Below, piece by piece: positions 9,895 to 40,608 of a stretch of DNA of 64,000 bases. The stretch is from a virus (lineage: Duplodnaviria; Caudoviricetes). The stretch's first letter is position 1. Each line of letters starts with the position of its first letter. The notes beneath the pieces are model-generated. The model searched no databases, was not told the DNA's origin, and was given only the letters and a program-made list of their open reading frames with translations. Location of the stretch: the IMG/VR virus record IMGVR_UViG_3300011008_000027, positions 1-64,000 of that record; one strand, given 5' to 3'. The position numbers and the translations under genes are program-made.

Positions 9895-11027
9895 CTATTT
9901 ATAAAGTTCATCTACAAGTTTATTGAAATTCGGAAGATTTAATCCAAATCTCTCAAAGATCATTCTTCTCTCTTCTTCTTCATACGTAGTCTTCATATTT
10001 TTTCTAATGTCCATAATACGATAATTAATTTTACACATACTATTCGTACATACAAAACTGGAATACGATTTGTCGTATGTTAACTCGCTGTTGCATTTCG
10101 GACATATTAATGCATCTTCATTGCCGAATCGAGGATACAAATAGCCATACTATTATGTTAATTATCATACGATAATCGCTTCTTAGTTTTCACTAAGTTA
10201 CAGACTATATCTTCAGTATTTCTACTGCCTACCGTTTCGATTTAACTGGGTTTACATTACCTTATTACGGTTTAACACCAGACCATAAACATTTATATGG
10301 TTCTACTCTACTCCCTTATTTATGGTTTCGATAGTCGTTGAACTCATACCTTATCACAATATAAGGTACTTCGCTGCGTCGATTAACTCTATTCTCAACT
10401 TTATTACTATATCTAAGGCTATTAACCTTTGCCATCACAATATTACTATTGTAAATTAGTAGTTGAGACTTAACAAGCACTCCCCGCAATTAGATAGGTT
10501 TAAACTGGACAATGGCATTTATCCAATATCACTAATGTATTATCATCTCTTTTTCCGTAATTTGCAAAATTCTTTGCTGTGGCAAATCCGAGATCTTCGA
10601 ATATATACTCTTTACTTAATTCATCCAACATCTTTTTCAGCTGAGATTCATTCATGAAGAATTCATCCTTATCAAGCAAAGTAACATATTCCATTACATT
10701 AATTAATCCGTTTGATTCATAAGTAATCGCACAAAATTCCTTTAATTCCTGAGATCTGATAAACTCCGTGCAATTATCGACTATTCCTCTTCTATCGAGA
10801 GCTATCTTTATAACATAGAAGCCTCTTTTAAACGCGATTCTATTGGTGCCAGTCCCGAGTTCTTCAAACTCAGGACCAACAATATGAGATACGATATTAG
10901 CTTTATCATTATTATCTTCAATATCGATTCTCAACGCATTATAATATAAACGCTTTATCATCTCTTCTGAAAAGTACTCCATGATTAAAGAACGTACTTG
11001 CACTTCATCATCATCATCAAACACCAT
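9895..11027 (-). CDS. Protein kinase-like enzyme with C-terminal zinc ribbon; spliced, exons 11027-10521 and 10149-9895 (253 aa)
   Basis: ELGTGTNR Gly-loop, VIKIA lysine, EDLG..KNFANYG catalytic-loop-like segment; splicing restores VILD|YGY (DFG-equivalent); CPKC...CTNSMC zinc ribbon. Confidence 0.75.
10150..10520 (-). ncRNA. Group I intron 1 (371 nt, ORF-less) in the kinase gene
   Basis: Core elements AATTGCGGGGA (P), AATCGACGCAGC (Q), GTTCAACGACTA (R), AAGATATAGTCTG (S); P1 TTGGAT/GTCCAG with U-G at the 5' splice site; terminal G at 10150; P10 GCCAT pairs with exon ATGGC. Confidence 0.9.
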
Positions 11028-11046
11028 ACTATTTTACTCCTCCCTT

Positions 11047-12150
11047 TCATTTATTACCGCCCATAAATTCGTCGAATGTGAAATCTAAGAAACTTTCATC
11101 CTGAAGTTTCTTTCCGAATTCGTCCCGTGAGTTCTGTAATAATGATCGCAGTTTATTATCAGACTGCAATCTTCTTTGCTGGGCTTGCATAAGTTTCTTA
11201 TTCTTTTTCTTAAATTTCTTTAGTTCTCGCTTTGTCATTGGTTCCACAATACCGGCTTTAGATGATATAAGTTTAATTGCTTTTCTATCCATACCGGAAT
11301 TATTAATATGATTTCTAACATCATATCCTTCAGCTGCCATAAATTTATAAAGCTCGATGAGATTCTGATCTTTAGCATTACGAGCTTTTCCACTGCTTAC
11401 ATAATATTTCTCTTGATCGAGTGCAGCTTCATCAGCTTCCGTCATAATCGAAGCTTCATACATTCGAGATACAGTTTCCAAGAATGATCTTTCTTCAATC
11501 TTACCGCCATTAGCAATTACGTATTCATCGGTAAAGAAGTCTTTTATTACATCATATCCGGGGTTAAATGCCGTTTTTGTATATAATGAGTTGATACGAT
11601 CTCTCTCGTTGAGTTTCCCTGTTCCAACTCGAACGGCTTTCTTTTCTTTCTTACTCATTAATGACCTTTTCATTTCTAAGTCATTAGTAGTCAATTCGAT
11701 CGGTTTAGACAAGATACTTCGCAATTGGGTCGAATCATCAACTTCATAAACTCTCCTTGAAGGTCTTATTCCCGTCTTAAGAAGAGTCATATTCGTTTTG
11801 GATTTCTTTAATACCGGCATCGGAGGAAGAAAGTCTTCTATATATCCCTCTTTAATTCCTTTTCGTATCGATTTCATTGAAGGATATTTCTCAAGAAGGT
11901 GCTCTATATACTCATCATATATATCGAGAGCATCAAAATACTTGAATATGTCTGAATACTTTCTACGAATTTTCATCGCCTTCAATACATACGGATCATG
12001 CACTTCATCAAAATATCGCTTTTCAATACATAAATCCATATTGAACATCGGTTTCATAAGAAAATCAGGATAATTCAAATTTTCAAAATCTAAACTATCA
12101 TAATTTCCTTGAGAATAAGATTCATTCTCATCACTGAAATTAATCTTCAT
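11047..12150 (-). CDS. Hypothetical protein
   Basis: 367-aa ORF with RBS, likely co-transcribed with the kinase. Confidence 0.65.
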   Translation of the reverse strand: MKINFSDENESYSQGNYDSLDFENLNYPDFLMKPMFNMDLCIEKRYFDEVHDPYVLKAMKIRRKYSDIFKYFDALDIYDEYIEHLLEKYPSMKSIRKGIKEGYIEDFLPPMPVLKKSKTNMTLLKTGIRPSRRVYEVDDSTQLRSILSKPIELTTNDLEMKRSLMSKKEKKAVRVGTGKLNERDRINSLYTKTAFNPGYDVIKDFFTDEYVIANGGKIEERSFLETVSRMYEASIMTEADEAALDQEKYYVSSGKARNAKDQNLIELYKFMAAEGYDVRNHINNSGMDRKAIKLISSKAGIVEPMTKRELKKFKKKNKKLMQAQQRRLQSDNKLRSLLQNSRDEFGKKLQDESFLDFTFDEFMGGNK

Positions 12151-38871: not shown

Positions 38872-38989
38872 CCAATCACTCCCTTTAAATAATTTAAATA
38901 CACTAATGATGTGTTGCCACCAAAATAAGATATAAATCAAATTTAAGATAATTAGTATACATTATATAGTATACTAATTATCTTTTTTA

Positions 38990-40608
38990 TTACATTAACA
39001 AATCATCAGGGTCTACTTCATCAAGTTTAACTTTAGCTACATGAAAACGCTTCATGTTCATGTTCATGAGTCCATTCGGTATTGTAACTGTAGTCGAACC
39101 TGCATTATATAAATTGAAGTAATTAAATATTTCCCCCGCACATTTATTACATATTTTCTTTCCCGTACAGAATAGAGGAGATCTCTTATGTACGACTTTA
39201 CCTACATAACTATCTATATTATCATCATTGAGTAAGACATTTTTATCTCCCTCTATTATATAAGAATATAAAAAATCTTTTTTATTAAATGATGTAACTT
39301 TCTGTTCTAATGTAGTTTTAGTCTTACAATCAGAACCTTTTTCATCTATTACTATTGATTGAAAAGCCGCATAGAACTTTTTGGTGAAATAACCACCCTA
39401 TTTATGTTAATTATCATACGATAATCGCTTCTTTATTCACATAAAGTTACAGACTATATCTTCAATACTTTCGTATTGCCTACCGTTTCGATTTAACTGG
39501 GTTTACATTACCTTATTACGGCTTAACACCAGACCATAAACATTTATATGGTTCTACTCTACTCCCTTATTATTTATGGTTTCGATAGTCGTTGAACTCA
39601 TACCTTATCACAATATAAGATACTTCGCTGCGTCGATTAACTCTATTCTCAACTTTATTACTATATCTAAGGCTATTAACCTTCGCCACTATTATATTGC
39701 TATAATAGTTTAGTAGTTGAGACTTAACAAGCACTCCCCGCAATTAGATAGGTTTTATAAGGACAATGATATTTATCCTTAGTTCCGACAGCTTTAGGGA
39801 ATCCTGCATTAACTACTATATTACCAGCTATCGGAAGATCTTTCTTAGCTATTCCTTCTATATAGTTTGACTCCATCATATCATATTTTCCCGTTGCAGG
39901 ATTCTGCATTGCTCCAACCATAACATTACAGTTTTTAAAGTCATTCTCAAATGAACCTCTACCACCAGAATAATATAAGTACATTCCCGGATCATCTTTT
40001 ATTAAATCGGCATTAAGTGCAACTAAGTCATCTTCAAGTTGAACTATCTTATCAAGAGGAACTTCATCACCATATTCTTTACGTAATGCAGCTACTCGCT
40101 TCTTTTTCTCTTCCATTACTTTAGGATGAGCAGTAGCTACTGCTTTTGTAAATGCAGGTGAAAATGTTATAGCAAGTTTTAATCCCCAAAATTCTACTTC
40201 TTTCACTACTCTTTGTACTACTTCCATAGTTATCTTTTTATTTACTACAGCAGGAAATAACAAACCTAAAAAATCTGAATATGTCTTTTTATTTATTACA
40301 TCCGGATTATAAAATCCATCCGGTACTATATGTGATATTTCATTCTTTTCTACTATAATCTTATTAAATAGAAATATCCCCGGGGTGGTAATTATATCTT
40401 TAGTATTAATATATTCCCTTGCCTTAAGAGTTATCTTTCTATTCTTAGGAAGTATAGGTTCAGTCTGTTCTCCGGTTTTTACATTCATAGTAGTGCCAAA
40501 AAGTTTATTTATATCTTTAACAGTAACAGTTTTAGGATCGATATCAAATAGCATCTTTTTAAAATTATCTTCTAATTCAGTAGTTCTTTCTTTGGCTAAT
40601 AATGGCAT
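38990..40608 (-). CDS. Phage RNA polymerase beta' middle/C-terminal subunit (bridge helix, Zn site, trigger loop); spliced, exons 40608-39775 and 39397-38990 (413 aa)
   Basis: TTPGIFLFN, SGGRGS, SNYIEG; splicing gives VGTKD|GGYFTKKF...SDCKT; RSPLFC..KICNKCAG; MNMKRFH. Confidence 0.88.
39398..39774 (-). ncRNA. Group I intron 3 (377 nt, ORF-less) in the RNAP bridge-helix codons
   Basis: Near-identical to intron 1; P1 AAGGAT/GTCCTT; terminal G at 39398; P10 ATCATT/GGTGGT (wobble-rich). Confidence 0.9.

Follow-up and report, generated by a model that had tools for sequence, protein, structure and literature searches.

Three sibling group I introns without endonuclease genes at non-homologous sites in an uncultured jumbo phage

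How group I introns reach sites that are not homologous to those they already occupy is still an open question. In phage T4, Shub et al. are said to have described in 1988 three homologous group IA2 cores in three genes, td, nrdB and nrdD (sunY). Phage Twort reportedly carries the small IA2-type group I introns orf142-I1 to I3 and nrdE-I1 and I2, mostly without open reading frames (ORFs), at different sites and with a sequence similarity that points to common descent or to shuffling, a description attributed to Landthaler and Shub in 1999 and to Landthaler et al. in 2002. Here we describe a trio of group I introns, I1, I2 and I3, in an uncultured giant (jumbo) gut phage. The stretch analysed, hereafter the window, is 64,000 nucleotides (nt) long and forms the first 64 kb of a 99,756-bp IMG/VR virus record (IMGVR_UViG_3300011008_000027), whose CheckV completeness of ~40% implies a full genome of roughly 250 kb. 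With precedents in T4, Twort and the jumbo phage AR9 the kind of element is known, and what the locus adds is a clean natural case of spread to new sites.

As in Twort, several related small group I introns, mostly lacking ORFs, lie in one genome; unlike those of Twort, the copies are 86-92% identical, sit in three different genes and have an intronless sister allele for each site. Splicing of the Twort introns has been demonstrated experimentally, whereas we infer that of I1 to I3. In T4 every one of the three introns has its own homing endonuclease gene, and the divergence among them is far greater; I1 to I3 are without endonuclease genes. Sequence similarity among the Twort introns is quoted, in a passage of PMC4853749, as suggesting a common origin. 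Introns in jumbo-phage polymerase genes are likewise already known (PMC12350094). The intron of AR9 g270 is, like I2, a group I intron in the gene for the beta-prime N-terminal piece of a jumbo-phage RNA polymerase and falls inside the DYDGD motif; unlike I2, it lies 3 nt upstream (after DYDG, GACGGT^, where ^ marks an insertion point), and it has the guide GCCGTC, a different core and the HNH gene g271. Related introns at heterologous sites in nuclear ribosomal RNA genes (rDNA) have been regarded as the best circumstantial evidence for ectopic transposition (PMC3984707). I1 to I3 share with these the heterologous sites and, as proposed, a short guide match as the sole requirement, but the nuclear sites lie in eukaryotic rRNA, and those described here belong to a DNA phage, where each interrupts a protein-coding gene in phase 0 behind a GAU.

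Three sibling introns and their fold

The three introns can be aligned over their whole length:

10150..10520, minus strand: intron I1, 371 nt, group I with subgroup-IA-like architecture, no ORF (Rfam RF00028, 51.0 bits, E 3.2e-12)
37166..37581, minus strand: intron I2, 416 nt, sibling of I1 and I3 (RF00028, 26.7 bits, E 6.7e-5, under the gathering score)
39398..39774, minus strand: intron I3, 377 nt, sibling of I1 and I2 (RF00028, 50.5 bits)

Identity in aligned columns is 92.5% between I1 and I3, 90.6% between I1 and I2 and 86.0% between I2 and I3. Over the first 26 nt the same pairs are 77, 54 and 50% identical, against 94, 92 and 88% for the remainder. The surplus of ~51 nt in I2 consists, by inspection, of two hairpins 3′ of the P7 5′ strand. 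The private changes of I3 are concentrated in P5b, P8 and P9, and many are compensatory; those of I1 number seven in 434 alignment columns with the guide region included, and very few lie outside the guide. All three copies are identical in columns 101-152 and differ by one change in columns 29-71, with clusters of changes adjoining these stretches. When mosaic or recombinant structure was sought among the three copies, every difference proved private to one copy, so that no incongruence is demonstrable. BLAST, nhmmer --max and core-motif scans found exactly three copies in the entire record. The only intron ORF of at least 60 amino acids (aa) is a 64-aa TTG frame in I2; no ORF within I1, I2 or I3 encodes a homing endonuclease or matches Pfam.

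A structure written by hand, comprising P3, P4, P5 with its extension, P6/P6a, the P7 pseudoknot, P7.1, P7.2, P8, P9 and P9.1, accommodates all three sequences: from P3 to P9.1, with the P7 pseudoknot, 98.9% of cells are paired (94 pairs). Compensatory changes on both sides occur in 10 of the 94 pairs, a count reached by none of 500 shuffles, and controls with slid partners gave 0-2. These changes are located in P5b, P6a, P7.1, P7.2, P8 and P9, and selection therefore acts on each copy to preserve its fold. P7 (GACTAT/ATAGTC) is invariant, as is P4, so neither contributes covariation evidence. Between the 5′ strand of P7 and the 3′ strand of P3 sit two helices that show covariation and that, by inspection, are the putative P7.1 and P7.2; this would be the arrangement of subgroup IA (phage-type, IA2-like). 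Two core elements recur in all copies:

10332..10343, minus strand: core element R of I1 (GTTCAACGACTA), J6/7 and the P7 5′ strand; same element at 37394-37405 and 39586-39597
10203..10212, minus strand: core element S of I1 (AGATATAGTC), the P7 3′ strand; same element at 37219-37228 and 39452-39461

Matches to RF00028, whose gathering score is 50 bits, appear only when stretches of ~400 nt are scanned, and this score is reached by I1 and I3 and not by I2. Rfam scans of the whole window at the gathering score and of 32 kb at an E-value threshold reported none of the three introns, because of the speed filters. At the level of sequence, the three elements are confirmed as group I introns of one family without endonuclease genes.

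Guides, splice junctions and intronless alleles

All three introns are in phase 0 after an in-frame GAT, start with AAA and end in ATAG. The interrupted genes, whose exons flank the introns, are as follows:

10521..11027, minus strand: gene 1 exon 1, 169 aa, kinase-like, ending ..VILD (phrog_4301)
9895..10149, minus strand: gene 1 exon 2, 84 aa and stop, YGYLYP.., followed by a zinc-ribbon-like region
37582..38871, minus strand: gene 2 exon 1, 430 aa, RNA polymerase beta-prime N-terminal piece ending in the Mg-binding DYDGD (phrog_2987, 5e-56)
36998..37165, minus strand: gene 2 exon 2, 55 aa and stop, QLNVYRII..
39775..40608, minus strand: gene 3 exon 1, 278 aa, RNA polymerase subunit piece ending ..AVGTKD (phrog_2962 positions 57-298)
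38990..39397, minus strand: gene 3 exon 2, 135 aa and stop, GGYFTKKF.. (phrog_2962 positions 300-431, continuous with exon 1)

Each intron carries a guide that fits its own exons. P1 is paired at six of six positions in all three, with a U.G pair at the splice site (TTGGAT/GTCCAG in I1, GGAGAT/GTCTCC in I2 and AAGGAT/GTCCTT in I3), and P10 is formed, in one register in all copies, between the six bases immediately 5′ of the guide and the first six bases of the 3′ exon:

10505..10516, minus strand: I1 guide region, P10 strand GCCATT (10511-10516) and P1 strand GTCCAG (10505-10510); P10 pairs 5/6 with TATGGC
37567..37578, minus strand: I2 guide region, P10 strand AAGCTT (37573-37578) and P1 strand GTCTCC (37567-37572); P10 pairs 4/6 with CAGCTG
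39759..39770, minus strand: I3 guide region, P10 strand ATCATT (39765-39770) and P1 strand GTCCTT (39759-39764); P10 pairs 6/6, wobbles included, with GGTGGT

Placed on either of the other two sites, each guide forms only 3-4 contiguous pairs, against six of six on its own. I1 and I3 have in common the 5′ segment AAAT..CATTGTCC....AAACC; within it they differ at P10, at the two outer positions of P1 and at a few bases of the junction, and nowhere else. Point changes have therefore reshaped the guides, without replacing them. The GAU shared by all three insertion points is non-random: for one random U-ending site per gene, the same trinucleotide and phase would arise by chance with a probability of ~0.0014 in a test that was chosen post hoc. 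Beyond GAT/GGAT the flanks of the three sites have no similarity, and there is therefore no sign of exon co-conversion, which speaks against homing by homologous repair.

In-frame stops lie 7, 9 and 17 codons into the introns. The predicted junctions, VILD^YGY in gene 1, DYDGD^QLN in gene 2 and GTKD^GGY in gene 3, are supported by homologues without introns, to which the spliced products align with no gap: gene 1 aligns without gaps over its full length, and the junctions of genes 2 and 3 are gapless against phiR1-37 g274 and against AR9 g264 and phiR1-37 g231, respectively, as well as against the close relative described below. Splicing would thus restore a kinase-like protein and two RNA polymerase beta-prime-type pieces.

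The closest relative found by protein searches is represented by two syntenic contigs with the same gene order from one sequencing sample, L024 (2.6 kb), which holds the gene 1 homologue, and L027 (10.7 kb), which holds those of genes 2 and 3. The three genes are 71-83% identical to theirs in aa and 72-75% in nt, the 486-aa orthologue of gene 2 standing at 83% aa identity, and the relative is without an intron at all three sites:

Gene 1 site: relative ATATTGGAT^TATGGG, this phage ATATTGGAT^TATGGC
Gene 2 site: relative GATGGCGAT^CAATTA, this phage GATGGAGAT^CAGCTG
Gene 3 site: relative ACTAAAGAT^GGTGGTTAC, this phage ACTAAGGAT^GGTGGTTAT

The differences beside the sites are synonymous and mostly fall at P1 or P10 pairing positions; they are no proof of exon adaptation, because the two genomes differ by ~27% overall. 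A separate search of viral contigs for related loci with beta-prime exon 1 returned no relative. The comparison supports a lineage-specific gain of introns at the three sites, which would have followed the split from the closest sampled relative.

An initial annotation of this stretch had given the coordinates of the three introns exactly, together with the P1 and P10 proper to each, the phase after an Asp GAT codon, the terminal AAA and ATAG, the lack of a homing endonuclease and the three predicted junctions, and in all of these it agrees with the present analysis. Where it spoke of unrelated genes, it was right that the insertion sites are non-homologous, but two of the genes both encode pieces of phage multisubunit RNA polymerases. 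Its mention of introns in RNA polymerase genes of AR9-type phages is borne out by the g270 intron with its HNH gene, although ‘AR9-type’ is a loose term for a phage whose RNA polymerase pieces are only 31-45% identical to their AR9 counterparts.

Host genes and relatives of the introns

The spliced product of gene 1 (window 9895-11027) is a kinase-like protein of 253 aa whose C-terminal region has four Cys that are invariant in the family alignment; matches of exon 2 to zinc ribbons are weak and under the Pfam cut-offs. The family comprises more than 130 proteins in uncultured phage contigs and corresponds to no Pfam family. Pfam and PDB sequence searches with exon 1 gave no match, and a single-sequence fold reached a predicted local distance difference test (pLDDT) of only 33. 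An AlphaFold model of the intronless homologue P0002, built with 55 aligned relatives, had a pLDDT of 91, and in a Foldseek search of PDB with this model the top matches were all protein kinases (PKA, PRPK/Bud32 and Rio2), at a probability of ~1 but with template modelling (TM) scores of only 0.35-0.43. On the strength of the model, the gene 1 product looks kinase-like. I1 follows the invariant Asp of ILD^YGY, at the position of a DFG-like motif.

The best AR9 match of gene 2 is g270, annotated as a non-virion RNA polymerase subunit, and I2 is inserted immediately after the DYDGD motif. Gene 3 is homologous to AR9 g264, annotated as a virion RNA polymerase subunit, and the sequence at its junction, AVGTKD^GGYFTKKF, resembles the beta-prime bridge helix. 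An ORF of 597 aa at window 41481-43274 adjoins the intron-bearing genes and has a weak RNA_pol_Rpb1_2 match (E 0.007). It is probably another beta-prime piece, and probably an uninterrupted one, because its orthologue in L027 has 594 aa. Gene callers give the exons as separate truncated proteins (P0001, P0121 and P0134).

Truncation is also seen among the homologues of gene 2. Among the best 120 homologues of the beta-prime N-terminal piece (P0134-P0253, gut jumbo-phage contigs), 46 are truncated, and the truncation points recur: behind NRNPS, ahead of the DYDGD position or within NADF. An end after DYDGD is seen in the protein of this phage only. At three loci of truncated homologues, introns occupy other positions, and at two of the three loci they come with HNH_3 ORFs. 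The gene for the beta-prime N-terminal piece may thus be a general intron hot spot. No cognate-site donor for I2 was found among these 120 homologues or in the phage, viral-contig and metagenome collections, and none was found for I1 or I3. The AR9 g270 intron was considered as a cognate-site source of I2 and rejected on account of its 3-nt offset, different guide and different core.

Searches with a 21-nt core probe and with BLAST located members of the wider intron family in gyrB of the AR9-like Bacillus phage Internexus, in jumbo phages of Vibrio and in contigs of viral and metagenome origin. With an nhmmer profile built from the three copies, the copies themselves score 390-431 bits, against at most 94 bits for all other family members found, and phage, viral-contig and metagenome collections yielded no closer relative. 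A tree covering P3 to the 3′ end, with five alignable outgroups, unites I1 to I3 in a clade with support of 94/94, whose stem measures 0.30 changes per site. The branch of I1 has zero length and the private changes of this copy are few, and I1 therefore looks closest to the common ancestor. Among the outgroup introns, the 5′ and 3′ splice sites of those in L004, L019, L021 and L023 could be placed only tentatively.

Several of these relatives deserve mention in their own right. In an uncultured phage, a single gene (L010:1250-2800; L015, L017, L020 and L022 contain the same stretch) has group I core motifs at about 1351, 1717, 2027, 2363 and 2700, and over ~1.6 kb it seems to be interrupted by five or more small group I introns, one belonging to the family of I1 to I3 and the rest to a second family. 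In the metagenome Ga0265294, L019:1085-1480, L021 and L023 hold near-identical cores of the I1 to I3 family, whose guides differ and whose flanks are unrelated. In both L021 and L023 an ORF of 358-384 aa, weakly matching DUF4379 or DUF2726, ends just before the core; CapR is a further match of the related ORFs in L007 and L008. No ORF of this kind accompanies the L019 intron, which follows ..NVMG in a beta-prime gene. The L021 guide, GTCCAG, is that of I1, yet its host gene is unrelated. The hexamer GACGGT, which encodes the Asp-Gly of the DxDG metal-binding motif, precedes introns in different genes or is the target of their guides (L011:3440-3460, AR9 g270; L005:2940-2960, Internexus gyrB; L007, L008 and L023), with the beta-prime DYDG position and gyrB among the genes concerned. 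The pattern is a hint that, across this group of introns, the choice of site is shaped by short matches to the guide.

Routes of spread

The reading that we favour, and hold to be rather probable, is that the three are paralogous endonuclease-less introns, derived from one ORF-less ancestor that spread to non-homologous sites and whose guides were then adjusted. Spread to such sites with remodelling of the guides by point changes is what the sequences support. By standard group I chemistry, the last six bases of the 5′ exon would pair with the internal guide to form P1, with the U.G pair at the cleavage site; free guanosine bound at P7 would attack the 5′ splice site, and P10 would align the 3′ exon so that the terminal G of the intron could be used for exon ligation. 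Ribosomes reading past the 5′ splice site would be expected to terminate at the in-frame stops, and splicing would thus be needed for the small kinase-like protein and for two beta-prime-type pieces of the phage RNA polymerases. The ancestor would have had a short P1 loop (AAAU..CAUU) and a guide core GUC, and would have colonised three non-homologous GAU sites once the lineage had split from its closest sampled relative. Point changes would then have tuned the outer P1 positions and the P10 positions, in part within the introns and perhaps also at synonymous sites of the exons. In character the introns resemble selfish elements and not regulators.

The initial annotation had proposed recent intragenomic spread with remodelling of the guide sequences. 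Spread accords with the sibling relationship, the clade and the empty sites of the relative, and remodelling with the point changes in an otherwise shared 5′ segment; ‘recent’ is to be taken in a relative sense, as the copies differ by 8-14% and by insertions and deletions. To call such spread poorly documented was an overstatement, given the T4 and Twort precedents. Among the checks it had put forward were group I models, a search for more copies or an endonuclease-bearing donor, comparison with intronless alleles and a phylogeny that could expose three independent acquisitions; these gave, respectively, RF00028 matches on short stretches, three copies only with no endonuclease gene in the 99.8-kb record, a relative empty at all three sites and a single clade.

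How the ancestor moved is a separate matter. Integration directed by the guide, by reverse splicing at short GAU/GGAU matches followed by conversion to DNA, is in our estimation the most likely route, if somewhat short of an even chance; we infer it because an ORF-less ancestor integrating at matches of 3-4 bp would agree with the guide core GUC and the short P1 loop that are shared. Transposition by reverse splicing is without direct experimental proof, needs reverse transcription and is argued mainly from rDNA phylogenies, according to a 2014 review (PMC3984707). A bolder proposal, that an ORF-less family of group I ribozymes is actively moving from one protein-coding gene to another in uncultured jumbo phages of the gut, guided by RNA and independent of endonucleases, with reverse splicing that needs only a GAU/GGAU match of 3-4 nt, is one we entertain tentatively and would on balance not expect to hold. 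Several observations weigh against the favoured reading or its proposed route. Reverse splicing requires a reverse transcriptase, and none was found in the 99.8-kb record, in which HNH, HNH_3, GIY-YIG, LAGLIDADG_3, RVT_1, DUF4379, CapR and DUF2726 have no match and homologues of the AR9 or phiR1-37 endonucleases were likewise not found. The record represents ~40% of the genome, and a donor, an endonuclease or a reverse transcriptase could sit in the remainder or in a co-infecting phage. The guides of I1 and I3 match the I2 site over just 3 bp, and I2 stays below the Rfam gathering score although it is 90.6% identical to I1. A tree of the conserved 5′ half recovers the three-copy clade with weak support only (38/5.9). 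Finally, family members with endonuclease genes exist in other phages, so that the introns may have entered by means of an endonuclease whose gene was then lost.

The main rival is an accident at the level of DNA followed by selection, in which illegitimate or microhomology-mediated break repair, or template switching, would have placed the introns ectopically; only insertions after a U with a workable P1 would have survived, and mutation would have optimised the guide. It dispenses with the reverse transcriptase that is missing from the record, it agrees with flanks that have no homology and with a relative that is intronless at all three sites, and illegitimate break repair is cited for intron acquisition in T4 (PMC3984707). 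We nevertheless judge it unlikely: it would require three insertions, each precise to the nucleotide on either side, and it explains the shared GAU and the guide core GUC only through later selection and not through the insertion step. Homing with subsequent endonuclease loss, and gene conversion, are less likely again. Three separate homing events from unsampled phages, whose introns carried endonucleases at the same sites and then lost those genes, would be in keeping with the CapR-, DUF4379- or DUF2726-domain ORFs that stand before the core in family members elsewhere, with the HNH_3 ORFs of introns near DYDGD in related beta-prime genes and with the truncation, suggestive of introns, of 46 of the 120 best homologues of the beta-prime N-terminal piece. 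Yet none of those 120 ends after DYDGD as gene 2 does, the neighbouring introns lie 3 to 15 nt away and have other guides, and the collections searched hold no closer relative of I1 to I3; nor would independent deletions of endonuclease genes be expected to leave I1 and I3 with the same short P1 loop, and the flanks contain no recognisable co-converted foreign tracts. We regard this history as improbable. It is formally conceivable that three older, independent introns had their cores homogenised by gene conversion while selection kept the site-specific guides different, and the long stretches identical in all three copies beside clusters of changes (one change in columns 29-71, none in 101-152) could be read in this way. 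That account is very improbable: the closest relative lacks all three introns, which would demand either old introns and their loss there or a gain regardless, the three sequences fit a simple star tree with private changes only, and identity stops only a few bases short of the 3′ splice site while the 5′ differences are point changes at pairing positions with no tract boundary.

The locus offers a set composed of three endonuclease-less siblings, three target sites that share GAU and three matching empty alleles from a close relative, and defined RNAs for reverse-splicing and splicing assays can be written directly from it. Both RNA polymerase sets of the phage, together with its kinase-like gene, would depend on ribozyme splicing. 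Default Rfam scans of long sequence miss introns of this kind, so that the genes are called as fragments. If endonuclease-independent, RNA-guided transposition is true, then the trio, taken with the intronless sister alleles, would document such events in nature.

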